Assembly (NCBI GenBank): GCA_035260725.1
Contig: DATFUR010000013.1
Location: 1 to 38,267, forward strand
Source: Patescibacteria group bacterium
Lineage (GTDB): Bacteria > Patescibacteriota > Microgenomatia > Levybacterales > UBA12049
DNA: 38,267 bases
Direction of reading: 5' to 3'
Shown: piece by piece, positions 1-15,617 of the stretch
How positions within the stretch are numbered: the first letter of the stretch is position 1
Layout: each line of letters begins with the position of its first letter
The notes under the pieces: model-generated
The model's input: only the letters and a program-made list of their open reading frames with translations
Databases searched by the model: none
Told to the model about the DNA's origin: nothing
Position numbers and translations under genes: made by a program

Positions 1-3000
1 ATTACCGCAACAGCAGGAGGAAATGCTGCAGCTAAGGTATCAACAACCAAATTATTCTTTAATCCATCCACCGGTCTTTTAACATCTACAGGATTCTCCG
101 GTCCATTAACAGGAAACGTAACAGGTAATGTTTCGGGAACTGCAGCAACAGTAACAGGAGCAGCACAGTCTGCTATTACCTCAGTCGGAAGTTTGGTTTC
201 GGGTACGGTAATTGCCTCGCAGACATTCAGTACAAACGCAATTTCCGACTCTGGAGCATTAACTATTACTTCCGCAACAGCGAGTAACTTAACTCTTGGT
301 GCAGCAGGTACAACCGGAACCTTAACTCTTGGTCTTTCAACAGATACCAATACTATTAGTATTGGTGCCGGAGCAACAGCTGACACAAAGATTCAGACAA
401 TCAACATTGGTACCGGAACCGGTGTTACAACAGGTAAGGCTGTTATTACAATTGGTGAAACAAATGGAGCATCCTCTCTTACCTTAAAAGCAGGAACAGG
501 TGACATTAACTTCTATTCAACTTCAAACAAGATTACAAGTTCAGGTGCATTAACAGTTGCATCCACCATTACAGCTGCAACAACTGGCACTATTAATGGA
601 ATCAATGTCAGCTCCTCTGCAGTCTCAGGAGTTACGACTCTTGGTCTTTCTGGAGCGATAACCGGTGCCACAGCAACAAATACAATCAATGGAATAGTTA
701 TCAACTCCGGCGCTGTATCAAGTGTTTCAACATTAGGATTATCCGGTGCAATTACGGGTGCAACCGCAACCAACACTATTAATGGTTTAATTATCAATGG
801 TTCTACGCAGACATTAGCTGCTGATGGAATAACTTTTGCCGCTGGGACAGGGAGCCACAATGTAACTTTGACAGCGGGAACCGGGGGAACAACAGCAGGA
901 CTTATTGTAATTCCTGATACAACTGCGAGTCAGGTAATAACGGCAACAACAGGAACTCTCAATAACGCGGTCGGAGTTGCAGTAAATTCTGTTTCGGGAG
1001 GAGCTGCGGCCAAAATTGCTATCTCCGGAGTAGTTTCTGCAGTTGCCGATAACGTGATTGCAGTAGGAGATTATATTGGTATTGGAACAACAACTGCCGG
1101 ACGCGCAAAAAGTTTGGGGTCTACATATCCTACGACTGCAAATATCCAGGTTTTAGGAAGAGCACTTACTGCACAAGCTAGTGCCGGATCTACATTTAAT
1201 TTACTTTTGTCCGCTTTGGATAATAACGTTTCGGCAGGAGCGGCTTGTACAACTTGTATAGTCCAGATTCCAACAGGAAATACTGCAAATACAGCTAACA
1301 ACAATGTTATTTCTCCGACTGCCGGCAGCGTAAAAGGATTAACTATTAACGGAACCACCGATGCTACGACTGCTGCGGACATTTTGAATTTGATATCCGG
1401 TGTTAATACTGGTCTAACCTCGACTAACGGAATTCTTTTTAATCAAAATTCTGCCGGAACAACTACAAATGGTTTGAATATAACTCAAACAACAGGTACA
1501 TTAATAAGCGGAATTTCTTTCTCAGGGACAATCGGGACAGATATTACTACCGCTTCAGGTAGGGTTCTAAGTATCGATTCTGGTACAACGGGAGGCATCA
1601 ACATAGGTACTTCGGCCAATGCTAAAACTCTAACTCTGGGTAACACAACCGCTCAAACTAACGTAATAATAAATGCCGGAGTAACAACCAATAACACTGC
1701 GGGTTTGGCTGTTAACGCAAACGGAGCTACAACCGATACGGCTGGAGCCGTCGGAATTTCTGCAACCGGCTTGACAACAGGTACGGGACTCGCGCTTACT
1801 GTTTCGGATCCAAAAGTCAATGCAAGTGGTGCCACGAATGCAAAATTATCGACGGGTAAAATAATCAGCGTCGTCGCAACCGACGGCAAAAATTACTTGT
1901 CTTTGGACAACAGGGATTTGACAGTTGGGGGACACACAAATCAAGTTACAGTTACAAACGTCAACGATATTTATGTCTATGATACGACAAGGGATTTAGA
2001 CGGCGGAAGATGGACTCAGGATGAAAGAGCAAAGCAAGCATCCTGGTATAACGAAACAAGGACAGCGGCTGACGCTTGTACGATTGGAACAAACCTTCGT
2101 TGTGGAGCCCAGGTATTTCCAAAAAAAGCGATTTTGGTCGTAACAGCCTCCGGTACAACCAAAAATCTTCTTATATTTGACGCAAAAGACAATTCCTTGT
2201 GGATGGAATTTGACGCTTCGGGAGCGCAGGTTGCATTAGGATCATCGTCGACCACTGTTAACACTCTGTCTTCAGTATTTGCGCTCAACGGGAATATCTA
2301 TGTCGGAACTAATGGAACGACCCCGACCGGAATGTACGAAATTAACTTCAAGAACGACAAAATTACAAGGTATAACACGACAGACGCCGAAGATTATTCC
2401 GGTGCGATTTCGTCAAGAAACACGACGCAGACCGCAGCCTACAACAGCCAGGGAAGAACGGCCATGGCTATTCTTAGCGCATCGGTTAACGACGTCTTCG
2501 CCCAGCCAATTAATGGAAAAACTTTTGTTGCGGTTGCAACGGCGGGAGGAACAAACGGAGGAATTTCGCTTATTAACGAAACCTCCCAGTCGGTTGCTAA
2601 CTTAGGAACAGCCAGCAAAGCTTATACGGCTGCCTGGTACAGCCCGGACGATAATGTTTATGGTTTGAATTCGACGGATAAAGAATTGGATGTTTGGTAT
2701 CAAGCCTCCACCAAGTCCGGTAATACAGTTGCTTTCTCCGCAATGTATGACGAAACGGGTACCAGTGCAACAAGCGGGACTGGAGTTTTGGGCCCCGCCT
2801 TATTCTCGGCAGCTCCCACAATCAACGCCTCCGCGCCCGACGCTTTGTACGTAACTAATGGAACATCGACTGTAGACGGACAGTCCAACACAATTTACGT
2901 TGCGTATAATGAAGGACTTACCGTTTTGCAGGAGAAAACCGGGAACGAAACTGCAGGGTCAGTTAAGTATTATTCTTCCAATAATATTTCGGAAGAGATG

Positions 3001-6000
3001 ATTGGAGATACCAGGGCAATGCTTCCCATGGCCGGGAATACGACGCTAAATAATGCCTTGATAAGTAATGCATCAGATAAAGATGTTTCTATTAAAGCTG
3101 TAGGTTTTACTTCAAAAGGCACAACTAATGTGACCTCTGTTTCCGGAGTAAGAGGTCTTGCAAAGAATTTTGATGGTACGGCAAACTATCTTTGTACTGG
3201 AACGGTTGCAAATACTTGTGCCGATAACACTAACCTATCTATTGCAACAAATACCTTCGCCCTTAGCTTTTGGATTAAGACAACGAGCGCTGTGACAACG
3301 AGGACTATTGTTAACAAGCAGGTAACCTCAAGCCCAACAGCAGGATCTGCCGGATATTATGTCGGAATTACAACGGGACATTTATTGACTGCAAACGTAA
3401 CCGATGGAACGACTGCAATAACGGCGACATCAACAAGAATCCTTGACGATAATCTTTGGCACCACGTTGTAATTTCGGAAAATAGATTGATTAACAATTC
3501 AGCTTGTAACGCTGCCGGTAACTCGTGCACTTTGACTCAATATATCGATGGTGTCCAGGATGGTCAATCCGCTGCAAATACAACTCAATCAGGTTCGATG
3601 ACCAATACAAACTTTATGACACTAATGGCAAACTCTGCCGCAACAGCAGCACAGTTTACGGGAGGAGTTCTGGACGAGTTCTCATTCTTTGCTAATTCGA
3701 TATCGGCAGCGCAGGTTCAGAAAATGTACCAAGTTGGCTACAGAGCTTTGTTCTCAAGCAATAATGGAAGCGGTACGTTCCATTCCGCTCAAACAATTCG
3801 TGGAGTTACGGTTGCGGCGGACGCATCCCAAGCACTAAACGGCTCGTCAGTTGTCAAAGCCGTTAGACCAATGATGGATAATGGACTCATCTATACGGGA
3901 GGAGCAGCCGGAGTTTCGGTAATAGGAATTGACAATGACACTTTGCAAGATCTTTATTCTACTTCGATTACGACTAAAGACGATGTCAATGCAGCTTACG
4001 ATGCGACAAACGGAAACGCGGTCGTTTCGGTATCCAATACAAAGGGTTATGGAACCGGAACACTTTTAGCAATTGGACAAAACAACTCCGGAGCGGGTGG
4101 AATTTGGGCAGAGAGTAACGACACAACCTTTAAAGATTTCCTTGCAACAAGCTATGACCCATTTGGCATGACCTTTACCCAGACAAACTTGAGCGTAGAC
4201 AGAGTTCTAAGAGTTAGTAACCAGGGGGGATCAAGGCTAGATAATCTTACGATAACCGGCACTACTCAACCAATTGTCCCGGATATATTTAGAGTGGACA
4301 ACAACGGTGTTGCAGTCAGTGTCCCGACGGAAGCTTTATACACCAATGGAACAAACACCATTGCCGGTGTGACAATTTCTGCAATGAATAATATAACTAT
4401 GAATGGAGGAACAGCAGTAACCTTCAATGGTATTAGTACGACTACGCCAAATATAACTGGAACCTCCGGTACGCCAACAGCAAATGGAGAAAATATTACT
4501 GTTGGAACAGTAACAACTGCCGGCACCAATGATGGAATAAAGATTACCTTGCCAACGGGATCGGGTTCAATTACGACTGCCGGAACTATTAGTGGTATTG
4601 AATTGCCAACCGTGGCGGCAGGTCCCGGAGCAGGATCTTTAAATGGAATCAAGATTGGTAGCATCACTACTCCAGGTGCTGGAACAGAAACAGGGTTAAA
4701 TATTGGTTCAGGCTGGGATACGGCTATAGGCGTGACTGATTCTCAAGCCGTAGCCAATACTTTGGTAAATATTACAACATCTAATACAGGTCAAACCGGT
4801 AATTCTCTTTTGACCCAAACTGCATCAACTGCTACGGTCACCAATGGCCTGGTCAGATTTAACTTTAACGGTATACGAACGACTGCTGGCAATGGTTTCC
4901 AGATTGATGATGTCTCCACCACTCTTGCTACAGCTATGCAAGTCAATGTTAACTCTCTGACTACTGGCTTGGGACTCTCGGTCATTAACACTGGTACTGG
5001 ACTTACTACTGCAGGTGTCAACACCGGTTCATTATTAAATATCAATTCTTCCGGCGCAACCACTGCCTTTACAGGTTCTCTGGCAAATATAAACTTTGCT
5101 GGTACCGCGGTTGCAAACACTGGTGCTCTTTTGAACATCAATGCCTCGGGTACCTCCCAAATAACTCAACCTATCCTTGTTACCGACGCATCAACCGGTG
5201 CCACTACCAACGGTATGGTCCGCTTCAACTTTACTGGTGCCCGCACCGCGGCTGGCAATGGTTTCCAAATCGATGACATTTCAACAACCCTTGCAACGAC
5301 TATGAAAATTAACACCAACTCTTTAACAACAGGTAACGGTTTGGTGGTATCGGCAACAGCCGCTGGATTAACCGGTAACGCCTTGTCAGTTACCACTGGT
5401 TCAACAGGTGCGCCTACAGCCGGGTTGGTCCGCTTTAACTTCAACGGCATCCGAACAGCCGCCGGAGTTGGTTTCCAGATCGACGATATTTCGACGACGC
5501 TGGCAACTGCTATGCAACTTAATGCTAACTCACTCACAAGCGGTCTTGGATTCACGATTGCTTCCTCCGCAACCGGCATTACTACTGCCGGAACTAACGT
5601 TGGTTCACTCTTAAACGTTAATGAAACAGGCGCGATGACTGGGATGACCGGGCAACTTGTCTCCATAAACGCTTCAGGCGCAAACGCTGTCGGTTCAACC
5701 GGTTCCGCTCTTAATATCAACCTTGCCGGTACCGCGCAACTGATGAAGGGTATTACTGTAACTAGTGCAACGACTGGGGTAACGACAGATATGATGACCA
5801 TGACTTACGGAGGTATTGCAACATTGGCAACCACCAATAAATTTATTCGCTTCATTAATAGCGGTGCTGCTACTCAAGGCCAAATATCCGGAACAGGTAC
5901 CACTGGTCAAGTGGTGTATACCACCACGTCTGATCTTCGTCTGAAGCACAACGTCACTGATACTCACTTTGGTCTGACTGATCTCATGAATCTCCACGTT

Positions 6001-7260
6001 CGAGATTATATTTTCAACGCTGATACTACCAATACAATACAAACTGGTTTCGTTGCTCAGGAATTGAATGGAATATATCCAGAAGCAGTTGCAACAAATG
6101 GCGATGATGGAATGGTGTCGCTTAGCAATGATGCAATTCCATGGTCAGTCGATTACGGTAAAGTTACTCCACTTCTTGTCAAAGCCATTCAAGACCAACA
6201 AGTTCTTGTAGTTGGTTTACAGACAAGTATTGCGGCGCTTAGAGAGCTTAAACAGTCGACCAGTTCCGCAGGATTGAATAATCAAATTACTCAAGCAAGT
6301 TCTTCTGCTCAAATCTCTACATCGTCCGCACAGCTTGCTCAAAAAATCATATTTGATAATGATTTTGTAAAGGTTTTAGGTTCACTTACAGTTGACAAGT
6401 CTGCGATAGTTTCATTAGATCTTTCCGTACTTGGAAAATTAACTGCAACGGGAGGATTAACAGTTTTTGGCCCTGCAGAATTTAAAGACAAAACAATCTT
6501 TGACTCGATTGCGGAATTCTTCGGAAATGTAATATTCCACAAGGATGTAGCTTTTGAAGGCCGTCCTACATTTAACAACGATACAGCAGGCTTTGCAATT
6601 GTTAAGAAAGATGCAGAAAGCGTTGACATAGTTTTTGATAAAGAATATACACAAACACCATTGGTAAATATCTCTGTAACAATAGACGACAATGTCAATG
6701 GAAGTGCAGATCCTGCAGTTTTGGCGGCCCAAACCAAACTGGAAAGCGACATATTAAACGGAGACATAAAATATGTAGTAACCAGAAGAAATACCCGCGG
6801 ATTTACAATAAAAATAAATAAGCCCGCTGTCGGGGATATTAAATTCTCATGGACGGCATTTGCTATAAAGGACGCAAAGACTGCGGTTAGTAGTGCTGTT
6901 TTGTCTACTCAAACATCAACGCCTACGCCCACGGCCACGCCGATTGCAACACCTGTCCCAACTGTAGTTCCCACCCCGACTCCATTGGTTTCTGCAAGTC
7001 CGACTCCCACACCAACTCCTACACCTAGCGCAACGCCGGTTGCATCTGTTCAGAGTGCATCGCAAACCTTAACGGTTAACCAAAACGATCTTGGATTTTT
7101 GAGAGTCAGAGATATTCCTGCTGCATCGGGGAGTGAGTTAGCGCAAGTTAACCCGGGCCAAACGTTTGAAATTAAAGGCACAGATAATGGATGGTATAAA
7201 ATTGAATATTCAACGGGCGCCTTCGGATGGGTTAGTGGAAGTTATGTAACTTTAAATTAA
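1..7260 (+). CDS. giant secreted/surface fibre- or adhesin-like protein, 5' end outside window (2419 aa in window)
   Basis: Frame 1 is open from nt 1 (ITATAGGNAAAKVSTTKLFFNPSTG...). The TTG at 193 used by the ORF track is therefore not the true start. Stop TAA 7258-7260. Composition is T/G/A/N/S-rich with fibre-like repeats. LamG-like, S74-like, PT-linker and SH3b-like blocks are listed separately. Confidence 0.9.
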   Translation: MTATAGGNAAAKVSTTKLFFNPSTGLLTSTGFSGPLTGNVTGNVSGTAATVTGAAQSAITSVGSLVSGTVIASQTFSTNAISDSGALTITSATASNLTLGAAGTTGTLTLGLSTDTNTISIGAGATADTKIQTINIGTGTGVTTGKAVITIGETNGASSLTLKAGTGDINFYSTSNKITSSGALTVASTITAATTGTINGINVSSSAVSGVTTLGLSGAITGATATNTINGIVINSGAVSSVSTLGLSGAITGATATNTINGLIINGSTQTLAADGITFAAGTGSHNVTLTAGTGGTTAGLIVIPDTTASQVITATTGTLNNAVGVAVNSVSGGAAAKIAISGVVSAVADNVIAVGDYIGIGTTTAGRAKSLGSTYPTTANIQVLGRALTAQASAGSTFNLLLSALDNNVSAGAACTTCIVQIPTGNTANTANNNVISPTAGSVKGLTINGTTDATTAADILNLISGVNTGLTSTNGILFNQNSAGTTTNGLNITQTTGTLISGISFSGTIGTDITTASGRVLSIDSGTTGGINIGTSANAKTLTLGNTTAQTNVIINAGVTTNNTAGLAVNANGATTDTAGAVGISATGLTTGTGLALTVSDPKVNASGATNAKLSTGKIISVVATDGKNYLSLDNRDLTVGGHTNQVTVTNVNDIYVYDTTRDLDGGRWTQDERAKQASWYNETRTAADACTIGTNLRCGAQVFPKKAILVVTASGTTKNLLIFDAKDNSLWMEFDASGAQVALGSSSTTVNTLSSVFALNGNIYVGTNGTTPTGMYEINFKNDKITRYNTTDAEDYSGAISSRNTTQTAAYNSQGRTAMAILSASVNDVFAQPINGKTFVAVATAGGTNGGISLINETSQSVANLGTASKAYTAAWYSPDDNVYGLNSTDKELDVWYQASTKSGNTVAFSAMYDETGTSATSGTGVLGPALFSAAPTINASAPDALYVTNGTSTVDGQSNTIYVAYNEGLTVLQEKTGNETAGSVKYYSSNNISEEMIGDTRAMLPMAGNTTLNNALISNASDKDVSIKAVGFTSKGTTNVTSVSGVRGLAKNFDGTANYLCTGTVANTCADNTNLSIATNTFALSFWIKTTSAVTTRTIVNKQVTSSPTAGSAGYYVGITTGHLLTANVTDGTTAITATSTRILDDNLWHHVVISENRLINNSACNAAGNSCTLTQYIDGVQDGQSAANTTQSGSMTNTNFMTLMANSAATAAQFTGGVLDEFSFFANSISAAQVQKMYQVGYRALFSSNNGSGTFHSAQTIRGVTVAADASQALNGSSVVKAVRPMMDNGLIYTGGAAGVSVIGIDNDTLQDLYSTSITTKDDVNAAYDATNGNAVVSVSNTKGYGTGTLLAIGQNNSGAGGIWAESNDTTFKDFLATSYDPFGMTFTQTNLSVDRVLRVSNQGGSRLDNLTITGTTQPIVPDIFRVDNNGVAVSVPTEALYTNGTNTIAGVTISAMNNITMNGGTAVTFNGISTTTPNITGTSGTPTANGENITVGTVTTAGTNDGIKITLPTGSGSITTAGTISGIELPTVAAGPGAGSLNGIKIGSITTPGAGTETGLNIGSGWDTAIGVTDSQAVANTLVNITTSNTGQTGNSLLTQTASTATVTNGLVRFNFNGIRTTAGNGFQIDDVSTTLATAMQVNVNSLTTGLGLSVINTGTGLTTAGVNTGSLLNINSSGATTAFTGSLANINFAGTAVANTGALLNINASGTSQITQPILVTDASTGATTNGMVRFNFTGARTAAGNGFQIDDISTTLATTMKINTNSLTTGNGLVVSATAAGLTGNALSVTTGSTGAPTAGLVRFNFNGIRTAAGVGFQIDDISTTLATAMQLNANSLTSGLGFTIASSATGITTAGTNVGSLLNVNETGAMTGMTGQLVSINASGANAVGSTGSALNINLAGTAQLMKGITVTSATTGVTTDMMTMTYGGIATLATTNKFIRFINSGAATQGQISGTGTTGQVVYTTTSDLRLKHNVTDTHFGLTDLMNLHVRDYIFNADTTNTIQTGFVAQELNGIYPEAVATNGDDGMVSLSNDAIPWSVDYGKVTPLLVKAIQDQQVLVVGLQTSIAALRELKQSTSSAGLNNQITQASSSAQISTSSAQLAQKIIFDNDFVKVLGSLTVDKSAIVSLDLSVLGKLTATGGLTVFGPAEFKDKTIFDSIAEFFGNVIFHKDVAFEGRPTFNNDTAGFAIVKKDAESVDIVFDKEYTQTPLVNISVTIDDNVNGSADPAVLAAQTKLESDILNGDIKYVVTRRNTRGFTIKINKPAVGDIKFSWTAFAIKDAKTAVSSAVLSTQTSTPTPTATPIATPVPTVVPTPTPLVSASPTPTPTPTPSATPVASVQSASQTLTVNQNDLGFLRVRDIPAASGSELAQVNPGQTFEIKGTDNGWYKIEYSTGAFGWVSGSYVTLN
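619..804 (+). repeat. two tandem 31-aa (93-nt) protein repeats inside the giant gene
   Basis: Unit 1 is 619-711 and unit 2 is 712-804. The core LGLSGAITGATATNTING is identical at protein level in both units, but 15 of its 18 codons differ synonymously (ctt/tta, ggt/gga, tct/tcc, ...). Confidence 0.85.
3166..3740 (+). other. LamG / concanavalin-A-like lectin domain (Laminin_G_3-like) within the giant protein
   Basis: The family's hallmark order of motifs is present: NFDGTANYL ... FALSFWIKT ... LWHHVVISE ... QYIDGVQ ... GVLDEFSFFANSISAAQVQKMY. Confidence 0.7.
4840..5560 (+). repeat. three diverged copies of a roughly 45-50-aa core repeat within the giant protein
   Basis: The core G[LM]VRFNF.G.RT.AG.GFQIDD[VI]STTLAT.M..N.NSLT.G.G starts near 4840, 5206 and 5413. 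Spacing is 366 and 207 nt. Protein identity is high and nucleotide identity is moderate. Confidence 0.85.
5920..6250 (+). other. Peptidase_S74-like intramolecular chaperone auto-processing domain (phage tail-fibre / endosialidase type)
   Basis: TTTSDLRLKHNV...LHVRDYIF...TGFVAQELNGIYPEAV...VDYGKVTPLLVKAIQDQQ. The Ser codon is at 5929-5931 and the Lys codon at 5944-5946. This gives the S-x4-K dyad spacing of endosialidase-type self-cleaving chaperone domains. Confidence 0.75.
6919..7039 (+). repeat. Pro/Thr-rich linker (TPTPTATPIATPVPTVVPTPTPLVSASPTPTPTPTPSATP)
   Basis: Direct translation. It is low-complexity at protein level, and codon usage varies between repeats. Confidence 0.9.
7090..7257 (+). 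other. bacterial SH3 (SH3b)-like C-terminal domain of the giant protein
   Basis: LRVRDIPAASGSELAQVNPGQTFEIKGTDNGWYKIEYSTGAFGWVSGSYVTL matches the usual SH3b pattern (LNVR..ps......l..G......... gWykV.....GWv...Yl). Confidence 0.65.
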
Positions 7261-7301: not shown

Positions 7302-7739
7302 ATGAAGCTTTTATTGAAATGGTCGAAAAATCATTTTTTCCTCGTAATTCTTCTTGCCATAACTCTTCTTTCTTCGCTTTACTATTACACACAGCTTCAA
7401 AAAACCCAAAAAGAATTGGCAGATCTTAAGAAAAATCCAACAGTCGCAGCCCAAAATGAAAACAATGCTCTTATTGCAAAAGTAGGCCAGCTAGTAGTAT
7501 TGCCAACAGGAGAAACGCCAACAATCGCAACAGTTTCGGATATAAGTAAACTAAAAAATCAGCCGTTTTTCTCCAAAGCAGAGAACGGAGACAAAATTTT
7601 AATTTATACACAAGCTAAAAAAGCTTATCTTTACTCTGTTGGGTTGAATAAAATTCTAGACGTTGCACCGGTCAATATAGGAGCGCAAGGAAATAGCCCT
7701 CAAGTAGCAGGTGAATCAACCGGACCTATAAAAAAATAA
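7302..7739 (+). CDS. membrane-anchored hypothetical protein, tandem paralog 1
   Basis: ATG start. N-terminal hydrophobic helix (FFLVILLAITLLSSLYYY). Its core, LPTGETPTIATVSDISKLKNQPFFSKAENGDKILIYTQAKKAYLY...APVNIG, is shared with the next gene. A consensus promoter lies directly upstream. Confidence 0.8.
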   Translation: MKLLLKWSKNHFFLVILLAITLLSSLYYYTQLQKTQKELADLKKNPTVAAQNENNALIAKVGQLVVLPTGETPTIATVSDISKLKNQPFFSKAENGDKILIYTQAKKAYLYSVGLNKILDVAPVNIGAQGNSPQVAGESTGPIKK

Positions 7740-7740
7740 T

Positions 7741-8145
7741 ATGGCAAAACAAATAGTACTTATTGTTCTTTTGATTCTGGCCATAATCGGAGGAGTTTTT
7801 GCGTTCACAAAATATCAGGCAACGCAGACGGAACTTACAAAATTAAAGCAAAATCCTCAATCTGTTGCCCAACAGGAAGTAAAAGATTTAGTCGCTCAAG
7901 TTGGTAAAATAGTAGAGCTTCCAACAGGAGAAACGCCAACAGTTGCAACAATTACAGACAAATCAAAGCTTACAGATCAACAGTTTTTTGCTAATGCGCA
8001 AAACGGAGACAAGGTTTTAATCTATGTGCAGGCTAAAAAAGCTTATCTTTATAGACCTTCAACAAACAAGCTCATTGATATAGCGCCGGTAAATGTGGGA
8101 ACAGCTTCCGCAAGTCCATCCCCGTCAGCAACCCCTAAGAAATAG
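7741..8145 (+). CDS. membrane-anchored hypothetical protein, tandem paralog 2
   Basis: ATG one nt after the previous stop. N-terminal helix IVLIVLLILAIIGGVFAF. The core LPTGETPTVATITDKSKLTDQQFFANAQNGDKVLIYVQAKKAYLY...APVNVG is paralogous to 7302-7739. Confidence 0.8.
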   Translation: MAKQIVLIVLLILAIIGGVFAFTKYQATQTELTKLKQNPQSVAQQEVKDLVAQVGKIVELPTGETPTVATITDKSKLTDQQFFANAQNGDKVLIYVQAKKAYLYRPSTNKLIDIAPVNVGTASASPSPSATPKK

Positions 8146-8868
8146 TTATTTGGTAAACAATTTTTGTGCTTTAGCGTAGTCTTCGTGCGTGTCTATTTCC
8201 ACCCATTTTAAGCCGGAAATATCTACAGCGCCAAAAGGTATTCCAAGTTCAACCAAAGTCGTATAAGAATCATCGTAATACTCGTTCCATTTATTTGGAT
8301 CTTTGAGCAATTGTTCCAGCTCGCCGAATAATATTTTTCCGGCCTCCTTACCTATTTTTTCAATACCGATTGATTCTCCGGAAGCTCTATTGAAGTCAAT
8401 TTTTTTTCCTACTTTTAAAACTCGACCATCAGTTCCAAGTTGGACTTTTACTTCCTCTTTGTCCAAGTGGATGTTTTTATCTATGCAAAGTGCACTCTTA
8501 AATGGACTTTGAATAAGTTTTTCCAGAATTTTCTGTTCGAAAACAACATCGGCATCGAATTTTACAAAGTCCTCATCTCTAATAAATTTTTTAGTCAGCA
8601 TGAGAGAGTAGGCAGTATTTGTTTTGTCAAACTTGTCGTTTCTAACGTATTTGATATTAAGGCCGGTAAAGGAGGAGGCAAATTCCTTGATCTTTTCTTC
8701 CAAGTATCCGGTCACAATGGTCACATCTTTTATTCCGGATTTTTGAATATTTGTCAGCATTCGTCCAAGTATTGTTGAGCCGTTAATCTCAAGCAAAGAT
8801 TTTGGGGCTTGGTCGGTGAGAGGTCTTATTCTTGAGCCTACGCCTGCTGCCAAAATAACTGCTTTCAT
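8146..8868 (-). CDS. LicC/PntC-like sugar- or headgroup-phosphate cytidylyltransferase (MobA-like NTP transferase family)
   Basis: N-terminal MKAVILAAGVGSRIRPLTDQAPKSLLEING nucleotide-binding signature. YSLMLTK, SGESIGIEK and WVEIDTHEDY blocks are arranged as in LicC-type CTP:phosphocholine/phosphonate cytidylyltransferases. Confidence 0.7.
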   Translation of the reverse strand: MKAVILAAGVGSRIRPLTDQAPKSLLEINGSTILGRMLTNIQKSGIKDVTIVTGYLEEKIKEFASSFTGLNIKYVRNDKFDKTNTAYSLMLTKKFIRDEDFVKFDADVVFEQKILEKLIQSPFKSALCIDKNIHLDKEEVKVQLGTDGRVLKVGKKIDFNRASGESIGIEKIGKEAGKILFGELEQLLKDPNKWNEYYDDSYTTLVELGIPFGAVDISGLKWVEIDTHEDYAKAQKLFTK

Positions 8869-8889
8869 AGAAGAGCTACTATTGTATAG

Positions 8890-9654
8890 CTATTTTCTTA
8901 GAGGTTCAAGAAGCTTGCCCGAGTTCTTGCTTACTTGATGTCCTCTTTCCCAAAATCTCCAAAATGCGATTACGATTTGGCTTACGGCAAGTATCCAAAG
9001 AGCCAGATCCAGTCTATTAAATAAAGCTCCAAGTGAGGTGAAAACTGCAAATTCTGCCTCATCGACGAACAATATAATTCTATTTCTAATCCAAAGAGAA
9101 TTTAAAAACGTTAATTTATTAATTTTTTTCTCCAGCTGTTCTCTTTTTTGGGCGGATTTGGATAAATACGAAGAATCAAGATCTATTCGGCCAAAAAGGG
9201 TTGCGAGTTTTATATAATACCTAAACATAAAGAAAAAACACGCAGCAAAGCCCAGGTAAATAAACAAAATATTGTCTGTTTTAAGGAAAACGGCGAGAGA
9301 AAGAGAAAAAGTTATTATGAAGATTTTTAAAACGTCCAATACTTTGTCCAAAAAGTCTCCAAAATTTGAAGACATGTTTCTTTCGCGGGCCAACTGGCCA
9401 TCCAGATCGTCACCGATATAGCCTAAAAATATGCCAATGCTTGCAAAATAAAGGTGCATCGGATATTGGACAAAAAGAGAGAGGCATCCTGCGGTAAAAA
9501 TAAAAAAAGAAAACCAGGTAACGGCATTAGGGGTTATAAATTTTAGATTTTTTATTATTTGGAGGAGCAGATTTGCAAGCGGATATCCGAAAATATCGGC
9601 CCAATTGCCGTAGTAGGAAGATTTTATAACCTTGGATTCTTTTTGAATAGGCAT
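8890..9654 (-). CDS. CDP-alcohol phosphatidyltransferase family membrane protein
   Basis: Perfect family motif D-x2-D-G-x2-A-R-x8-G-x3-D-x3-D in DDLDGQLARERNMSSNFGDFLDKVLD, plus several hydrophobic helices. The ATG at 9654 is preferred over the track's TTG at 9669. It sits 1 nt after the upstream gene's TAA. Confidence 0.8.
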   Translation of the reverse strand: MPIQKESKVIKSSYYGNWADIFGYPLANLLLQIIKNLKFITPNAVTWFSFFIFTAGCLSLFVQYPMHLYFASIGIFLGYIGDDLDGQLARERNMSSNFGDFLDKVLDVLKIFIITFSLSLAVFLKTDNILFIYLGFAACFFFMFRYYIKLATLFGRIDLDSSYLSKSAQKREQLEKKINKLTFLNSLWIRNRIILFVDEAEFAVFTSLGALFNRLDLALWILAVSQIVIAFWRFWERGHQVSKNSGKLLEPLRK

Positions 9655-9655
9655 A

Positions 9656-10825
9656 TTACAATGTTCCAAAAAGCACAGGATCTTGGAGGTTAATATTTCT
9701 TATAGGTATAGCTAATTTATCGTCTTTGTCTTTTTGGATTTGTTGTAAAACTTCCTCGAGGTTGCGTAGGAAGAATTCGACGTTGTCTTTATTTATTGCG
9801 CCTATGTTTCCAACTTGGAAAACCTTGTTTAGGAATGGTCCCTTGCCGTTATAAACAATAATATTTCTTTCTCTAAGGTGCTGTTTTAGCTTTTCAAATT
9901 CTACGGAGTTAGGTAATTTTACTGTCGTTAAAACCGAGGACATATGCTCTTCGTCTATCAAAAACGAGAGGCCGAGTTTTTTTAGCCCTGTCCTTAGGAT
10001 TTGGGTCATATCGTCGATGTGTTTTCTTCTTTTTGCGATTCCCTCGTTTAAGACGTTTGTCAAAGCCTGATTAAAGGCAAAATACAGCTGTACTGCAGGG
10101 GTGTTGGGTGTTTGGGAAAATTGAGTAGAGTAACGGTAAAAATTGTAGAGGTTTAGGTAGGCGGTTTTGGCGGGAACGTCTTTAAGCTTCTCGAACTCTT
10201 CTTTTTTTCCAATAACAAAAGCAACGCCTGGAAGAGATCCAATTGCCTTGCCTGCCGTTCCTGTGCAAAATGCAACGTTGGCTTTTTCCAGGTCAATTTT
10301 TTCGGCCCCAGCGCTACTAATTGAATCTACGAAGAACATTTTGTTATACTTTTTGGTTATTAATCCTACTTTTTCGAGTGGGTTTAGCATTCCTGTCGAA
10401 GTTTCATGATGGACCATTGCAACAACGTCCACGCGGTTTCTCTTTATATATTTTTCTATTCTTTCTAAATCTAAATTCTCTGCCCAATCAAACTTTAAGA
10501 TTTTTGTGTTTTTGTTGTGGATTTTGGAAATATCGTACAATCTTTCCCCAAATTCACCATTGGACAAAACAAGAATATGCAAATCTCCGGGCAAGGAGGA
10601 GAGTACGGCTTCGTTAACTGCGGTTCCGGAGCCTGTTATAACAACAGGGTGGTATTCCTTTGTGTCTCGGATTTCATAAAGCTCTAAAAGTTTGGAGTTG
10701 ATGTTGCCTAAAAGCTGTGAGAATTCACTTTCCCTGTGCCCGATTTCGTTTTGAACAGCGTCTTTAACATTTGCTGCAATATTTACCGGTCCCGGACAGA
10801 ACAAAAAGTGCTTTTTTACCTTCAT
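9656..10825 (-). CDS. class V (AGXT/PhnW-like) pyridoxal-phosphate aminotransferase
   Basis: FCPGPVNI...IGHRESEF, AMVHHETSTGMLNP, the PLP-lysine block TGTAGKAIGSLPGVAFVI and FQVGNIG. This resembles both serine-pyruvate/AGXT enzymes and 2-aminoethylphosphonate-pyruvate transaminases. ATG 10825 (MKVKKHF...) is preferred because a TTGCAA-N17-TATAAT promoter lies inside the track's TTG-started extension. Confidence 0.75.
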   Translation of the reverse strand: MKVKKHFLFCPGPVNIAANVKDAVQNEIGHRESEFSQLLGNINSKLLELYEIRDTKEYHPVVITGSGTAVNEAVLSSLPGDLHILVLSNGEFGERLYDISKIHNKNTKILKFDWAENLDLERIEKYIKRNRVDVVAMVHHETSTGMLNPLEKVGLITKKYNKMFFVDSISSAGAEKIDLEKANVAFCTGTAGKAIGSLPGVAFVIGKKEEFEKLKDVPAKTAYLNLYNFYRYSTQFSQTPNTPAVQLYFAFNQALTNVLNEGIAKRRKHIDDMTQILRTGLKKLGLSFLIDEEHMSSVLTTVKLPNSVEFEKLKQHLRERNIIVYNGKGPFLNKVFQVGNIGAINKDNVEFFLRNLEEVLQQIQKDKDDKLAIPIRNINLQDPVLFGTL

Positions 10826-10850
10826 TTTCTGATAATTCACGTAAGTGAAG

Positions 10851-10879
10851 ATTATAGTCTTATTGTGCTTGGTTTGCAA
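10851..10879 (-). promoter_or_regulatory. sigma70-like promoter for the aminotransferase/CDP-alcohol PT/cytidylyltransferase operon
   Basis: Minus strand: TTGCAA(10879-10874)-N17-TATAAT(10856-10851), 25 nt before ATG 10825. Confidence 0.55.
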
Positions 10880-10939: not shown

Positions 10940-11509
10940 ATGATTTTGTCGGACCGCGACATCAAAAAGGCCTTAAATTCGGGCCGAATCAAGATAACCC
11001 CAACTCCGGACTTCAAAACCCAGCTTGGCTCATGCTCCGTCGATTTGCGCTTGGGAAACGTCTTCCGCGTATTTGAACACAGCAAAAATGCGTATCTTGA
11101 TCCGGCAAAAAAAGATTACACAAATGAAATAACAAGAGAAATAAAAGTTAAAAATGGCGATAAATTTATAATGCAGCCGGGGGATTTTGTTTTGGCGGTA
11201 ACCTTGGAGAAAGTAAAAATTCCTAATGATTTAATGGGAAGGCTCGAAGGGCGTTCGTCTTTGGGGCGTTTGGGAATAGTTGTCCATTCTACAGCTTCTA
11301 TTTTTGATCCGGGTTGGGACGGCAAATGCGTTCTAGAGCTTGGTAATCTGGGTCGAATGGCAGTATCCCTTACTCCCGGCATGAGAATATGTGCAATGAC
11401 CTTTGAAGAGCTCACAAGCTCTGCGGAAACACCCTACACAAAGAAAAAAAATGCTAAATACGTATTCCAAAAAGGACCGGGGGAGTCAAAAATTCACCAA
11501 GATTTATGA
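10940..11509 (+). CDS. dcd: dCTP deaminase (Dcd family)
   Basis: MILSDRDIKKAL...GSCSVDLRLGN...GRSSLGRLGIVVH...DPGWDG...LELGN and a C-terminal YTKKKNAKYVFQKGP tail typical of Dcd. Confidence 0.85.
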   Translation: MILSDRDIKKALNSGRIKITPTPDFKTQLGSCSVDLRLGNVFRVFEHSKNAYLDPAKKDYTNEITREIKVKNGDKFIMQPGDFVLAVTLEKVKIPNDLMGRLEGRSSLGRLGIVVHSTASIFDPGWDGKCVLELGNLGRMAVSLTPGMRICAMTFEELTSSAETPYTKKKNAKYVFQKGPGESKIHQDL

Positions 11510-12198
11510 AAAACCAAAAATATCACGTTGAATTCGATATAGATTTTAAAAGAAATTCTCACAGGGGTCTGTTTGTGGTTTTGGAGGGGATCGAAGCATC
11601 GGGGAAAACCACCCAAACCGAAAGATTAGGGAAAAAAATTTCAGAAAAATTAAATGTCCTCCTGACAAAAAATCCAACCGACAGCTATGTTGGTCAATTT
11701 ATAAGAAAAAGTTTGCTTGCAGGTAAGGTTAGAATGCCGCCGGTTGCCATACAATATTTATTTGGAGCAGATCGGGAAATTCAACAAGAAGAAATAAATG
11801 AACATTTAGAAAAAGGAGAGGTTGTAGTCTCTGATAGATACTTTTGGTCTTCGGTTGCGTATGGCATTGCGGACAAAAAAGAGTTTGATTACGAAAATTC
11901 TGCGGAACTTTCACTCGTGGCCTTTAGTCTTCTTTCCATGTATCACCAGTTTATTCTTCCGGATATTACTATTTACTTAGAAGTTCCTGTGGAGGAAGCA
12001 ATGAAGAGAATCACCGGTTCTAAAAAACATACCGAAATTTATGACAATGAAGAAATGAATGTTAGAGTGGAAAAGGGTTATAAATGGTTAATTAAAAAAT
12101 TTCCAAAAGAGTTTATAATTTTAGACGGAACAAAAAGCGAAGAAACTTTGGAAACAGAAATCCTTAAAATAATTAATTCAAAACTTAAAAACAAATGA
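11506..12198 (+). CDS. tmk: thymidylate (dTMP) kinase
   Basis: P-loop FVVLEGIEASGKTTQ and a DRY(F)WSS-type block (SDRYFWSSVAYG). ATGA overlap with dcd. Confidence 0.85.
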   Translation: MKNQKYHVEFDIDFKRNSHRGLFVVLEGIEASGKTTQTERLGKKISEKLNVLLTKNPTDSYVGQFIRKSLLAGKVRMPPVAIQYLFGADREIQQEEINEHLEKGEVVVSDRYFWSSVAYGIADKKEFDYENSAELSLVAFSLLSMYHQFILPDITIYLEVPVEEAMKRITGSKKHTEIYDNEEMNVRVEKGYKWLIKKFPKEFIILDGTKSEETLETEILKIINSKLKNK

Positions 12199-12734
12199 TT
12201 TTAGGACCTAAAAAATTATTGCAGTTGGTAAAAACAAAAAAACTGGTCGTTGGTTTGTCCGAGCGGGAACTGACAAATCCGGAAGGAGCGGGTTTTGACC
12301 TTCGTTTGGGGGAAGTTTATAAGATTTCGGGCACTGCTTTTTTAGGCGAAACAGAAAGAAAAACTCCTACTGTCAAACTAGTTAAAAAGTACTCAAAGAG
12401 TATCAAAAATAAGCTAATTTTGAAGCCGGGGGATTTTTATTTGGTAACGACGATAGAGAGTTTTAACGTTCCGCAAAACTTAACTGTCAATTTTAAACCG
12501 AGGACAACTACTTTTCGCTCGGGACTTTTTTTGCGGACGGGAAATGTTGCTCCCGGATACAAAGGGCCGGTTACTTTTGGTTTAAAAAACGAAGGAAAAG
12601 TAAAAGTGACAATCGAAATGGGGGCGCGGTTTGTCCACGCGCAGTTTGAAGAAGTAAAAGGCGGCGGTTCACTTTACCGTGGACAATGGCAAGGTGGTAG
12701 AATAACAACGCGCAAGCGCGAGAAGCAAGTATGA
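12195..12734 (+). CDS. second Dcd/dUTPase-superfamily protein (dCTP deaminase- or dUTPase-like)
   Basis: GAGFDLRLGEVY, PGYKGPVTFGLKNEG and GARFVHAQF, with the tail GSLYRGQWQGGRI. ATGA overlaps on both sides. Confidence 0.7.
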   Translation: MILGPKKLLQLVKTKKLVVGLSERELTNPEGAGFDLRLGEVYKISGTAFLGETERKTPTVKLVKKYSKSIKNKLILKPGDFYLVTTIESFNVPQNLTVNFKPRTTTFRSGLFLRTGNVAPGYKGPVTFGLKNEGKVKVTIEMGARFVHAQFEEVKGGGSLYRGQWQGGRITTRKREKQV

Positions 12735-13723
12735 AAAAAAATCAAAAAACAAAAATCAAAAATCAAAATCACCCCGAATACCAATACCTAAATCTAGCAC
12801 GTGAGATTCTTAAAAGTGGAATAAAACAAACCGACAGGGGAACCGGTGTTTCGGATTACAGTATTTTTGGAAGGCAGTCGGTTTACGACTTGTCCAAAGG
12901 TTTTCCTCTTCTTACCACGAAGAAAGTTTACTGGAACGGAGTAATTCAGGAGCTTTACTGGTTTTTCTCGGGACAGACAAACATTAAATATCTTGTAGAT
13001 CACAATGTCCACATCTGGGACGATTACCCCTACAAAATTTACAAATCAAAAAATCCAAAGACCAAAATGACAAAGGACGAGTTCATTCAAAAGATTCGTG
13101 ATAACAGTTCATTCGCAAAAAAATGGGGGGAATTGCCCCGGATTTACGGCGAGATGTGGCGCAAATGGCCGACCCGCAAAAAAGGCAAGACAATAGACCA
13201 GCTCAAATGGATTATTGATGAGCTGAAAGCAGATCCCAACGCCCATAACGCGATTGTAAACTCCTGGAACCCCGAATATTTGTATACAATGGCAGACAAG
13301 AAGGACGCTTCGAGGTTTCCGATTTGCCACAACATGTACCAGGTTAGTAACCGCGGGGGAAAACTCTCATTAATTCTTTATCAGAGGAGTTGCGATTTGT
13401 TTTTGGGAGTTCCTTTTAATATCGCGTCATACGCATTGTTAACGCTTATTCTAGCAAAAATTTTAAAACTTGAGCCCGGAGAGTTTGTTCACGTTTACGG
13501 CGACGTCCATATTTATGAAAACCACATAAAACAGTTTAAAGAACAACTAAAAAGGATTCCTCGGCCATTTCCTAAGGTAACGTTAAAAGGAAAATTAAAC
13601 AAGATCGAAGATTTTAAGCCCGAGATGGTAGTTTTGGAAAATTATGACCCCTACTCTCCGATTAAGGCCGAACTTACTGTTGCGGGAGGATATTATGAGG
13701 GAAGAAAAAGAAAACGAAAATAG
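12731..13723 (+). CDS. thyA: thymidylate synthase ThyA (long form with L. casei-type insertion)
   Basis: DRGTGVSDYSIFG, GELPRIYGEMWRKW, catalytic FPICHNMYQ, LYQRSCDLFLGVPFNIASYALL and GDVHIYENH. Confidence 0.85.
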   Translation: MKKNQKTKIKNQNHPEYQYLNLAREILKSGIKQTDRGTGVSDYSIFGRQSVYDLSKGFPLLTTKKVYWNGVIQELYWFFSGQTNIKYLVDHNVHIWDDYPYKIYKSKNPKTKMTKDEFIQKIRDNSSFAKKWGELPRIYGEMWRKWPTRKKGKTIDQLKWIIDELKADPNAHNAIVNSWNPEYLYTMADKKDASRFPICHNMYQVSNRGGKLSLILYQRSCDLFLGVPFNIASYALLTLILAKILKLEPGEFVHVYGDVHIYENHIKQFKEQLKRIPRPFPKVTLKGKLNKIEDFKPEMVVLENYDPYSPIKAELTVAGGYYEGRKRKRK

Positions 13724-14629: not shown

Positions 14630-14632
14630 ATT

Positions 14633-15588: not shown

Positions 15589-15617
15589 TTGCAAAGACCA
15601 AATCTTGGAGTTATACT
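15589..15617 (+). promoter_or_regulatory. sigma70-like promoter for glyA
   Basis: TTGCAA(15589-15594)-N17-TATACT(15612-15617)-N13-ATG(15631). Confidence 0.5.

Follow-up and report, generated by a model that had tools for sequence, protein, structure and literature searches.

A central question about ultrasmall Patescibacteria is by what means they locate their hosts and stay attached to them. Type IV pili and a small number of lectin-like proteins are all that is known so far to have been implicated by experiment. The stretch of DNA analysed in this study (38,267 bp; hereafter the window) is an entire contig of a Patescibacteria bacterium, and it begins inside a giant ORF which the first-pass annotation had described as a mosaic of lectin-type, phage-fibre-type and cell-wall-binding-type modules, and as a candidate for attachment to a host or partner cell. 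Is this a real gene, and what would such a protein do? In summary, the gene is real, and the window covers its 3′ 7.3 kb; it encodes a modular phage-tail-fibre-like surface protein of a Patescibacteria (CPR) bacterium. The gene belongs to a large family not described so far, which resembles the prey-recognition fibres of predatory Bdellovibrio.

Reading frame and assembly support

Frame 1 of the forward strand is open from nt 1 to nt 7257 (2,419 codons) and ends with the stop codon at nt 7258-7260, while the 5′ end of the gene is lost at the contig end. The ORF (nt 1-7260, + strand) occupies 7,260 of the 38,267 nucleotides, or 19% of the window. Base composition puts the chance of such an open frame at 1e-61 to 1e-71, and the other five frames stay open for at most 212 codons; these figures bear out the extent and the size first given for the gene. 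The GC3 of the giant gene is 0.355, compared with 0.366 in the other genes, indicating native codon usage. Horizontal acquisition, which a higher GC content had prompted, was rejected since GC3 is native and the excess GC sits at codon position 2.

An exact look-up of the neighbouring gene matched only two contigs, from the Logan and JGI assemblies. They begin at window nt 41 and nt 174 and are 100% identical to the window over about 7.1 kb of the giant gene; the source metagenomes are SRR10360644 and JGI 3300002917. Exact DNA scans of metagenome_contigs for an upstream continuation gave no match to window nt 1-48 or nt 45-92. All three assemblies end within 173 nt of one another in the N-terminal repeat zone, which makes plain that this region is hard to assemble. 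The shared break also speaks for an assembly chimera in which the long frame results from an artefactual join inside the repeats. However, two further assemblies agree perfectly with the window from nt 41 and nt 174 on, the internal DNA repeats are just 65-73% identical and form no tandem arrays (Tandem Repeats Finder), the closest relative (P0001) is collinear over aa 494-1576 and aa 2092-2289, and the order of propeller-like domain, LamG domain and C-terminal module is found in five loci. A chimera is therefore very hard to credit; a fusion artefact is not supported, and the relatives retain the module order.

Modules of the giant protein

All features described below lie on the + strand. 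The N-terminal part of the ORF (aa 1-640; nt 1-1920) is a Thr/Gly/Ala/Asn-rich fibre region of no known family, whose blocks are common piecewise to many giant relatives. It includes a threefold 31-aa repeat at aa 183-275 (nt 547-825), in which LGLSGAITGATATNTING is found at aa 214 and 245. The fibre-like repeats and motifs quoted in the first-pass annotation are thus present in the protein, but they are not tandem repeats at the DNA level. The central and distal fibre stalk (aa 1250-1976; nt 3748-5928), also of no known family, contains the three FQIDD-type repeats noticed earlier. They are 52-110 aa in length (aa 1591-1892) with the FQIDD motif at aa 1633, 1755 and 1825, and their DNA cores (nt 4813-4968, 5179-5334 and 5389-5544) share a mutual identity of 65-71%. 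The stalk travels with the following S74 domain as one cassette, which is also present in P0004 and P0005.

Between the fibre region and the stalk, a region of about 450 aa had been described as alternating beta-strand-like segments. It is indeed all-beta in the AlphaFold monomer model and contains a propeller-like domain (aa ~650-1010; nt 1948-3030) for which neither Pfam nor NCBIfam has a model. The name propeller is tentative, the hhalign blade-repeat test on the domain having given weak internal repeat signals. The family of this domain comprises 2,790 representative clusters, mostly within proteins of 1,400-6,000 aa, and has invariant acidic and Arg residues; a conserved acidic/aromatic cluster reads YDTxxDxDGGxW...SWYxE...R...FP...D...WM. 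The domain is almost always paired with a LamG domain, which here is a Laminin_G_3/ConA-like lectin jelly roll (aa ~1078-1240; nt 3232-3720), as the first reading of the sequence had suggested. When this segment was scanned alone, Laminin_G_3 (PF13385) scored 53.6 bits against a cut-off of 27.6; the whole-protein Pfam scan under-reports the domain, so that a segment-wise scan is required. The PDB profile search returned the S-layer-domain protein 4qvs as the best match (E 1.5e-13), and also neurexin and TeNT Hc-N, while Foldseek found TeNT and BoNT Hc-N at an rmsd of 3-6 A. A fold search of viral structures returned essentially LamG jelly rolls alone.

The top Foldseek matches for the propeller-LamG pair as a whole are trans-sialidases and GH43 arabinanases, which have the same propeller-plus-lectin layout (whole-model TM ~0.25). 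The catalytic residues are an Arg triad, Tyr and Glu in GH33 and Asp, Asp and Glu in GH43. Membership in the sialidase (GH33) or GH43 family was rejected: the likeness is one of fold at this low TM score, the blade repeats are weak, and no glycosidase family was matched in Pfam or NCBIfam by the giant protein or 10 relatives.

A Peptidase_S74 intramolecular chaperone/autoprotease domain (aa 1977-~2100; nt 5929-6300) follows the stalk, which upholds the phage tail-fibre-type motif named in the first-pass annotation. PF13884 matches aa 1977-2030 with 31.4 bits in the whole protein and 36.4 bits in the segment alone (cut-off 22). The domain starts with SDLRLK (aa 1977-1982), containing the putative nucleophile Ser1977 (nt 5929-5931) and Lys1982 (nt 5944-5946). 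This sequence agrees with the SDxxxK motif of the Ser-Lys dyad as defined for S74 (PMC10769870) and is kept as (T/S)SDxRLK in homologues. The motif and self-cleavage have been proven by experiment for the MAT protein Bd3182 and for phage proteins (PMC10769870). In PDB profile searches, the segment matches the solved chaperone domains 8jov (E 3e-9) and 6f45 (E 6.5e-9), and MyRF 7dc3 at E 0.012. A long helix is predicted after the S74 core (aa ~2052-2100), and the segment is 34-36% identical to tail-fibre proteins of Roseobacter, Pelagibacter and Staphylococcus phages. In the monomer model of the C-terminal block, the S74 part has low confidence, the SH3b part is moderately confident, and the core of the C-terminal module alone is confident.

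The S74 domain is not at the extreme C-terminus, a point overlooked in the first-pass annotation; about 320 residues follow, made up of a spacer, the C-terminal module, a PT linker and an SH3b domain. A position at the extreme C-terminus is typical of phage and MAT proteins but not universal, the domain being internal in MyRF. For a MAT-type fibre, an internal S74 with lectin-like and SH3b domains behind it is unusual. Since self-cleavage at this position would detach these domains, it fits poorly with a simple picture in which an SH3b tip binds the host wall.

The module behind the spacer (aa 2172-2296; nt 6514-6888), likewise overlooked at first, is conserved and has an H-type-lectin-like beta-sandwich core in the structure model. 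Its signature is GRPTFNxDTAGFA...GFxIxL...FSWxAxAxKDAKT. In a genome scan performed with a trimmed alignment, it was found no more than 200 residues from the stop codon of long ORFs in all 80 related Patescibacteria loci, Saccharibacteria MAGs among them, and it is present in Microgenomates, Parcubacteria and Saccharibacteria; no copy was found in IMG/VR or GenBank phages. The H-type lectin family PF09458 matches the module with 22.1 bits (E 1.7e-4), which is below the cut-off of 24, and the homologue P0054 bears a precomputed PF09458 H_lectin annotation. Foldseek returned HPA, HAA, SLL-2 and discoidin II at E values of just 0.02-0.05. The module may thus be called lectin-like, with a modelled fold resembling H-type lectins. 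Its conservation across lineages would be unexpected for a host-specific tip and suggests an interaction with a conserved component of the producer cell.

The PT linker and SH3b-like tail noticed earlier were both recovered. The flexible Pro/Thr-rich linker spans aa ~2303-2349 (nt 6907-7047), and a bacterial SH3 domain spans aa 2367-2416 (nt 7099-7248), where SH3_3 (PF08239) scores 38.6-45 bits against a cut-off of 27. The nearest relatives of this SH3b are those of M23, NlpC/P60 and PEGA cell-wall proteins, and Foldseek matched it to SH3b domains of Clostridium perfringens and to the phiSM101 endolysin.

Relatives and the downstream gene pair

Different relatives share different blocks of the giant protein. 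Of the 80 related loci, 7 have S74, 4 have SH3b and 5 have the propeller-LamG pair. The C-termini of relatives are diverse as well. S74 is terminal in P0004 and P0014 and is followed by the C-terminal module in others; further relatives end in the module by itself, or in the module with SH3b, or M23 and then SH3b, behind it. In P0008 and P0015, a Peptidase_M23 domain adjoins SH3b or the C-terminal module, a domain that Pfam does not detect in the giant protein itself. Thus, the lectin-, phage-fibre- and wall-binding-type modules are joined in one gene as first described, but the combination is not exceptional; it is the rule in a large cassette-shuffled family. The giant gene gives access to secreted mosaic fibres that form a very large family and whose core modules have no Pfam or NCBIfam model. 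A search with the whole protein gave no PHROGs match and no useful NCBIfam match. P0014 bears the JGI label of a trimeric autotransporter adhesin; this assignment was rejected, the whole-protein Pfam scan having found no YadA-type anchor and the C-terminus being an SH3b domain.

In full-length relatives, a signal peptide precedes a conserved N-terminal domain of about 145 aa, which has the motif A-A-T-G-I-N-x-Q-I-N-F-Q-G-K. This domain has no Pfam or PDB sequence match in the relatives. In P0001, the one relative tested, it matches NCBIfam NF053851 (Bdello_MAT_N) with E 2.9e-7, but the score of 30.4 bits falls short of the cut-off of 60. Comparison with P0001 suggests that the missing 5′ part of the giant ORF encodes about 400 or more residues, probably including the signal peptide and the conserved N-terminal domain.

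Downstream of the giant ORF lie two genes for small membrane proteins that the first-pass annotation had overlooked. The first (nt 7302-7739) encodes a bitopic membrane protein of 145 aa, with an N-terminal TM helix and a conserved external domain of about 90 aa belonging to no known family. The second (nt 7741-8145) encodes its tandem paralogue of 134 aa, which is 59% identical to it. Neither has a Pfam or PDB sequence match or a significant NCBIfam match. The pairing with the giant gene is conserved: in 55 of 80 loci, homologues of the small protein genes come after the giant gene. Farther downstream lie housekeeping and envelope genes, no phage gene family was recognized among these neighbours, and the loci of relatives are flanked by murD, uvrD and pheST. 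The first description of a chromosomal gene in a small-genome organism agrees with this Patescibacteria context; that of flanks without phage genes holds on the downstream side, the upstream side lying beyond the contig end.

Proposed role and known systems

What is the giant protein for? The reading I prefer, and consider rather probable, is a secreted, S74-assisted trimeric mosaic fibre that is the Patescibacteria counterpart of the MAT prey-recognition fibres of Bdellovibrio. The giant ORF would represent the C-terminal 2,419 residues of a Sec-exported and very probably homotrimeric surface fibre composed of exchangeable cassettes. By homology to full-length relatives, the missing N-terminus would consist of a signal peptide and the domain of about 145 aa that holds the fibre on the producer surface, as proposed for MAT. 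The Thr/Gly/Ala-rich stretches may form the shaft, on which the propeller-like and LamG pair would be a carbohydrate-binding and possibly carbohydrate-cleaving cassette. After export, the S74 domain (Ser1977/Lys1982) may act as an intramolecular chaperone that nucleates and registers the trimer from the C-terminal side, and may then cut the chain before Ser1977. Binding of glycan and peptidoglycan may fall to the lectin-like C-terminal module and the SH3b domain on the PT linker. Overall, the fibre, in a presumed orientation on the producer cell, would recognize the envelope of another cell, a host or partner, and adhere to it.

The attachment role proposed in the first-pass annotation is inferred, and it gains support from three sides: the remote link of the relatives' N-domain to MAT prey-recognition fibres, the relative P0235, in which the propeller-LamG pair is fused to a type IV pilin N-methylation motif and thus placed on a pilin, and published Tn-seq data, according to which lectin-like envelope proteins are essential for the epibiotic growth of Saccharibacteria (Southlakia).

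It is conceivable, although I hold it only tentatively, that the giant gene belongs to a phylum-wide and hitherto undescribed two-gene system of Patescibacteria, in which a giant MAT-like fibre has a dedicated small membrane partner, encoded directly downstream, that catches, assembles or docks its invariant lectin-like C-terminal module. The small protein would play a part like that of the tail-fibre assembly chaperones whose genes adjoin fibre genes in phages. In the S74 subset, which includes the giant gene, self-cleavage would free the fibre from its C-terminal fragment; the host-recognition fibre would be uncoupled from a glycan/peptidoglycan-binding fragment consisting of S74, the lectin-like module and SH3b. 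Such a cleavage would be a MyRF-like release switch on the bacterial cell surface.

A different and less likely reading is that the protein is a structural fibre or coat of the producer's own envelope, tethered to its own peptidoglycan via SH3b and the C-terminal module. It might be docked to the small membrane protein and would not be specifically concerned with recognizing a host. Several features would suit such a coat: the strong conservation of the always terminal C-terminal module across Patescibacteria, the linkage of the gene to that of a conserved membrane-anchored protein, an SH3b most like those of the lineage's own wall enzymes, and an S-layer-domain protein as the best PDB profile match of LamG. 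Moreover, the giant proteins of Vampirococcus lugosii, a CPR bacterium, were linked to a fibrous cell surface (PMC8080830). On the other hand, the extreme shuffling of lectin-type cassettes is typical of receptor-binding proteins under diversifying pressure and not of structural coats, an active S74 would sever the fibre from this C-terminal anchor, and the MAT-like N-domain of relatives points to N-terminal anchoring.

I regard as improbable that the protein is a depolymerase-like attack fibre, in which the propeller-LamG pair would be a glycoside hydrolase degrading host surface polymers and S74 cleavage would free a peptidoglycan-targeting C-terminal fragment. The trans-sialidase and arabinanase layout, the invariant acidic and Arg residues of the propeller, the M23 domains of P0008 and P0015, and the order of propeller, stalk and S74, known in general from endosialidase tailspikes such as endoNF, are consistent with an enzyme. 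Nevertheless, the TM scores are low, catalytic residues are not mappable, the glycosidase searches in the giant protein and 10 relatives were negative, and the giant protein has no M23 domain. A phage or prophage tail-fibre gene sitting in the chromosome by chance is scarcely plausible. Its S74 segment does resemble phage tail-fibre proteins, and structural proteins of phages often contain LamG domains; but no PHROG was matched, housekeeping genes surround it on the downstream side, relatives adjoin murD, uvrD and pheST and have Sec signal peptides, the C-terminal module is absent from IMG/VR and GenBank phages, and the codon usage is native.

The preferred reading, a MAT-like attachment fibre, may be placed among known systems. 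Lysostaphin and endolysins likewise have a C-terminal SH3_3 domain on a flexible linker, and relatives of the giant protein have an M23 peptidase directly before it; here, however, the SH3b is on a fibre of >2,400 aa which contains no catalytic wall hydrolase. Envelope proteins of very great size are also described in the reports on V. lugosii (PMC8080830), where host attachment was proposed, and on Omnitrophota giant genes (bioRxiv 10.1101/2023.11.21.568195). They belong to ultrasmall host-dependent bacteria, and their suggested role is attachment to the host or attack on its cell wall. Those proteins are reported there with WD40, TPR and PKD-type domains; the searched text of the two sources makes no mention of S74, SH3b, lectin modules, the C-terminal module or the small-protein gene pair.

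In MyRF (MYRF ICA), the S74-type domain is internal as well, and cleavage parts an N-terminal trimer from a tethered C-terminal part. MyRF is, however, a eukaryotic membrane-bound transcription factor, and there is no sequence relationship outside S74. Phage tailspikes and fibres with a C-terminal chaperone (endoNF of K1F, T5 pb1 and phi29 gp12) likewise have the Ser/Lys dyad motif of S74 and a following helix. The endosialidase tailspike endoNF is ordered as propeller, stalk and S74, to which the order of propeller-like domain, lectin, stalk and S74 in the giant protein is similar, and the C-terminal module resembles tailspike C-terminal knobs. In contrast to these proteins, the giant gene is not in a phage, a Sec signal is present in relatives, S74 is not terminal, and the giant protein has neither a virion-attachment domain nor PHROG matches.

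The closest likeness of the family is to the mosaic adhesive trimer (MAT) fibres of Bdellovibrio bacteriovorus, which bind prey glycans (Caulton et al. 2024, PMC10769870). In both, a signal peptide is followed by a conserved beta-rich N-domain (about 130 aa in MAT, and seen here in relatives) and by a long fibre with swappable lectin-type tip cassettes; some members end in S74 with SDxxxK, others in a beta-sandwich instead of S74; and the gene is chromosomal in a bacterium living on other bacteria. The Patescibacteria proteins are, however, 2-5 times longer (1,500-6,000 aa compared with about 1,000 aa), and their producers are monoderm-like and belong to a group absent from Table S3 of PMC10769870. 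The giant protein also differs in its propeller-LamG cassette in mid-fibre, in the internal S74 followed by a lectin-like module, PT linker and SH3b, in a C-terminal module that is conserved and not variable, and in the conserved small membrane-protein gene downstream; the MAT_N match is that of a relative, below the curated cut-off, the N-terminus of the giant protein lying outside the window. With these differences, the family looks like the Patescibacteria counterpart of both the MAT fibres and phage receptor-binding proteins. If this is true, host range could be predicted from cassette content, localisation and genetic work in manipulable Saccharibacteria could make general use of the conserved termini and of the small partner protein, and the internal S74 would be a testable processing switch.

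The giant reading frame and its chromosomal setting

Frame 1 of the forward strand has no stop codon from nt 1 to 7257 and is closed by a stop codon at 7258-7260. It comprises 2,419 codons without a start codon because it runs off the window edge, as the first-pass annotation had described. Since the window is the entire 38,267-bp contig (NCBI record; proteins HKC14529, HKC14550, HKC14553, and HKC14557), the 5′ truncation is the contig end. Given the base composition, a run of 2,419 codons without a stop would arise by chance with a probability of 1e-61 to 1e-71, and no open run in the remaining five frames exceeds 212 codons. Is the frame an assembly chimera, a fusion artefact of the kind considered in that annotation? 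This is unlikely, because three assemblies agree on about 7.1 kb of the gene, its DNA repeats are diverged (65-73% identity) with no tandem arrays found in the ORF, and collinear relatives match its module order. A Logan SRR10360644 contig (from window nt 174) and a JGI 3300002917 contig (from nt 41) are both 100% identical to the ORF, and all three assemblies end inside one N-terminal repeat zone. The closest relative, protein P0001, shares 59% identity across query aa 494-1576 (counted from nt 1), which align with P0001 residues 893-1937. Thus, about 400 or more N-terminal residues are probably absent from the ORF.

Elsewhere, the contig is an ordinary chromosomal region, with rpsB-tsf-frr-rseP, G6PD, 6PGD, a class II aminoacyl-tRNA synthetase, YbeY, several envelope proteins, and a dcd-tmk-dcd-thyA-NUDIX-folA cluster with SHMT (10940-14629 and 15589-16953, both +). 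Searches of the window for tRNA genes and Rfam families were negative, and the giant protein has no PHROG match. The contig annotation thus agrees with the reported setting among housekeeping and surface genes rather than phage genes. The GC content of the giant gene is 0.44-0.47 vs. about 0.38-0.42. The excess lies entirely at codon position 2 (0.53 vs. 0.38) and is therefore attributed to the Thr/Gly/Ala-rich composition, while GC3 (0.355) is near that of the other genes (0.366). Thus, a foreign origin based on the raised GC was rejected.

Several neighbors deserve mention in their own right. The compact dTMP/folate cluster encodes, in order, a dCTP deaminase-like protein, thymidylate kinase, a second dCTP deaminase-like paralogue, thymidylate synthase, NUDIX, DHFR, and then SHMT, with an overlap of about 80 nt between the thyA and NUDIX ORFs. 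Such a cluster is notable in a group whose nucleotide biosynthesis is usually regarded as limited. At 8146-10879 (-), directly after the small membrane-protein genes described below and convergent to the fibre operon, are genes for a nucleotidyltransferase, a CDP-alcohol phosphatidyltransferase, and a class V aminotransferase. They may have a role in surface glycopolymer or lipid head-group synthesis; the P0001 locus (L003) has glycosyltransferases in the equivalent place. Probable envelope proteins run along the minus strand (17544-19286, 19325-19690, and 21462-25901): a 580-aa Pro-rich protein with weak SdrD_B and SpaA-like matches, a cupredoxin-like protein, four ORFs without a family, a 183-aa cohesin-domain protein, and a 519-aa ORF without a family. 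Together, they may form a second surface-protein cluster. Just 5′ of rpsB, at 25988-26362 (+), is a gene for a '23S rRNA-intervening sequence protein' family member (PF05635), and the window has no rRNA gene.

Module anatomy of the giant fibre

The giant gene is one real gene, a mosaic of LamG, an S74 domain with an intact dyad motif, SH3b, and three modules without a Pfam or NCBIfam model. Residues 1-640 are Thr/Gly/Ala/Asn-rich and fibre-like, include a 31-aa unit present three times (aa 183-275), and match no known family. An all-beta domain follows at aa ~650-1010 in an AlphaFold model of aa 620-1260 (11-sequence alignment; pLDDT 72, pTM 0.62). The best PDB fold matches of this model are trypanosomal (trans-)sialidases and GH43 arabinanases, enzymes in which a beta-propeller precedes a lectin-like second domain (E ~2e-11, whole-model TM only ~0.25). 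Since this TM is low, the blade-to-blade profile similarity is weak, and no Pfam or NCBIfam model covers aa ~650-1010, the domain is tentatively termed 'propeller-like'. It carries a conserved acidic/aromatic cluster, YDTxxDxDGGxW...SWYxE.

The other modules named in the first-pass annotation hold up in profile searches. The LamG/ConA-like block is a Laminin_G_3 domain (aa ~1078-1240; 53.6 bits vs. a cut-off of 27.6), which in PDB profile searches matches 4qvs (E 1.5e-13) as well as neurexin LNS and the tetanus and botulinum Hc-N domains. Further fibre sequence at aa 1250-1976 contains the three FQIDD units. The chaperone motif belongs to a Peptidase_S74 domain (aa 1977-~2100; 31-36 bits vs. 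22), in which SDLRLK fits the SDxxxK Ser/Lys dyad motif and is followed by a predicted long helix. It matches solved chaperone domains (8jov, E 3e-9; T5 pb1 6f45, E 6.5e-9; MyRF; phi29 gp12). A PT linker (aa ~2303-2349) and an SH3_3 domain (aa 2367-2416; up to 45 bits vs. 27), similar to the SH3b of clostridial wall hydrolases and endolysins, form the tail.

Between S74 and the linker lies a C-terminal module (aa 2172-2296) with a strongly conserved 'GRPTFNxDTAGFA...GFxIxL...FSWxAxAxKDAKT' sequence and a model core of pLDDT 87-97. Its H_lectin score of 22.1 bits is just under the cut-off of 24. Its fold matches are Helix agglutinins, SLL-2, discoidin II, and the C-terminal knobs of tailspikes and pyocin fibres (E 0.01-0.05), and the homologue P0054 has a precomputed H_lectin and SH3_3 annotation.

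Cassette shuffling and the small membrane proteins

Members of the family occur widely across Patescibacteria, with shuffled cassettes. The 47 homologues of the first pass are all 1,476-4,182 aa in length, and those named are labeled as Patescibacteria or Saccharimonadales. The query blocks in common vary from homologue to homologue, which is a signature of cassette shuffling. In an exhaustive profile search, the propeller-like domain was found in 2,790 representative clusters at E <= 0.001 (631 at E <= 1e-30), mostly in proteins of 1,400-6,000 aa, some with 3-4 copies. P0122-P0126 are among the multi-copy relatives, with three or four such domains in single proteins of 2,100-4,600 aa. The domain occurs together with Laminin_G_3 in 8 of 10 shorter relatives, and in P0235 the pair is placed behind a type IV pilin N-methylation motif.

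One peptide pattern of the C-terminal module was searched against a species-representative genome set; 122 relatives were found and 80 loci were kept. Essentially all are Patescibacteria MAGs, including Daviesbacteria, Levybacteria, Collierbacteria, Woesebacteria, Nomurabacteria, Uhrbacteria, Yanofskybacteria, Saccharibacteria, and others. Many record titles (L004, L010-L012, L020, L027-L029, and others; binchicken, SRP co-assemblies) read 'uncultured Gammaproteobacteria' or 'uncultured Pseudomonadales bacterium', which are probably wrong or placeholder taxon labels. As counted with custom HMMs, the module lies 9-198 residues from the stop of a long ORF in every locus, S74 precedes it in seven, SH3b follows it in four, and the propeller-LamG pair is present in five, while none of the 80 loci combines all five modules. 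P0004 and P0014 end in a terminal S74, and P0008 ends with the C-terminal module, an M23 peptidase, a PT linker, and SH3b. No relatives of the C-terminal module were found in IMG/VR or GenBank phages; the similarity to phage tail fibres is confined to the S74 segment (34-36% identity). A small HTH_17/MerR-type gene lies directly 5′ of several giant fibre genes or is fused to them in the gene call (L086 4605-4916, L003 3331-3606; proteins P0013, P0017, P0018, and P0032) and may be a dedicated regulator.

Directly 3′ of the giant gene are two tandem paralogues (nt 7302-7739 and 7741-8145, +; 59% identical), each combining a TM helix at the N-terminus with a conserved external domain of ~90 aa, and with no match to a known family. 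It was revealed that genes for this small membrane protein are linked to those carrying the C-terminal module, a genetic coupling that is unreported. In 55 of the 80 loci, a same-strand homologue is encoded 3′ of the module-bearing ORF, and in 33 no other gene lies between the two, with 82-288 nt separating the stop codon from the beginning of the aligned segment; in none is it upstream or on the opposite strand. The P0008 and P0001 genes are also followed by one, while none was seen after P0004, which has the S74 end without the C-terminal module (n = 1). In L003, a separate 733-aa DUF2341/Laminin_G_3 protein (12583-14784) is encoded between the P0001 gene and the homologue. The 41-nt gap before the first paralogue has a promoter-like site and no terminator-like site, neither result being above chance expectation.

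Proposed mechanism and likeness to MAT fibres

Nearly all full-length relatives have a signal peptide followed by a conserved ~145-aa domain, 'AATGINxQINFQGK...'. Its HMM was positive in 78 proteins gathered with the full-length query or the propeller profile, which places the N-domain in the same superfamily. The P0001 N-domain matches NCBIfam NF053851 'Bdello_MAT_N, mosaic adhesive trimer family chimeric fiber protein' (E 2.9e-7; 30.4 bits, under the curated cut-off of 60). By analogy with MAT (mosaic adhesive trimer) fibres, the giant protein would be Sec-exported and held by the N-domain. Trimer folding would start from the C-terminal side, with S74, and probably also the lectin-like knob, as the registration nucleus, and S74 would next cleave the chain N-terminal to Ser1977. 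Envelope glycans and peptidoglycan of a host or partner cell would be bound, or possibly processed, by the propeller-LamG cassette, the lectin-like module, and SH3b.

Cleavage by an active S74 would separate the lectin-like module and SH3b from the shaft. This part may be a transient assembly platform attached to the wall or membrane of the producer itself, perhaps via the small partner proteins; the strong cross-lineage conservation of the C-terminal module favors contact with a conserved producer component. It may instead be a released peptidoglycan-binding fragment, and the M23 peptidase in relatives favors action on the target wall. As for the giant adhesin suggested by the first-pass annotation, the verified modules support the architecture, while the role in host or partner-cell attachment, which I infer, is plausible and now better grounded. 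Giant CPR surface proteins were already proposed as host-attachment factors in Vampirococcus (PMC8080830). In Southlakia, lectin-like envelope proteins are essential for epibiotic growth. A literature search found no description of S74-bearing giant fibres in CPR.

Bdellovibrio bacteriovorus has 21 MAT fibres, in which a signal peptide precedes an invariant, beta-rich N-domain (~130 aa) that was proposed to be located at the predator surface; the shaft is an intertwined trimer, and the C-terminal tips are swappable (PMC10769870). Thirteen end in a self-cleaving S74 (SDxxxK), with cleavage shown for Bd3182, and eight have beta-sandwich or lectin-type tips in its place; the fibres are surface-localised, and prey-glycan binding was shown for one member (PMC10769870). 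MAT-type proteins of other predator-associated lineages are 417-1,915 aa in length, and no Patescibacteria are included in that list (PMC10769870 Table S3). In contrast to MAT fibres, the giant fibre has an internal S74 followed by the lectin-like module and SH3b, and it is further distinguished by the invariant C-terminal module, the propeller-LamG cassette, and the conserved small membrane-protein partner gene. The giant fibre is not unique but one combination within a very large Patescibacteria family, which, on these likenesses, may be best described as a giant variant of the MAT-like, phage-fibre-like mosaic trimeric adhesins.
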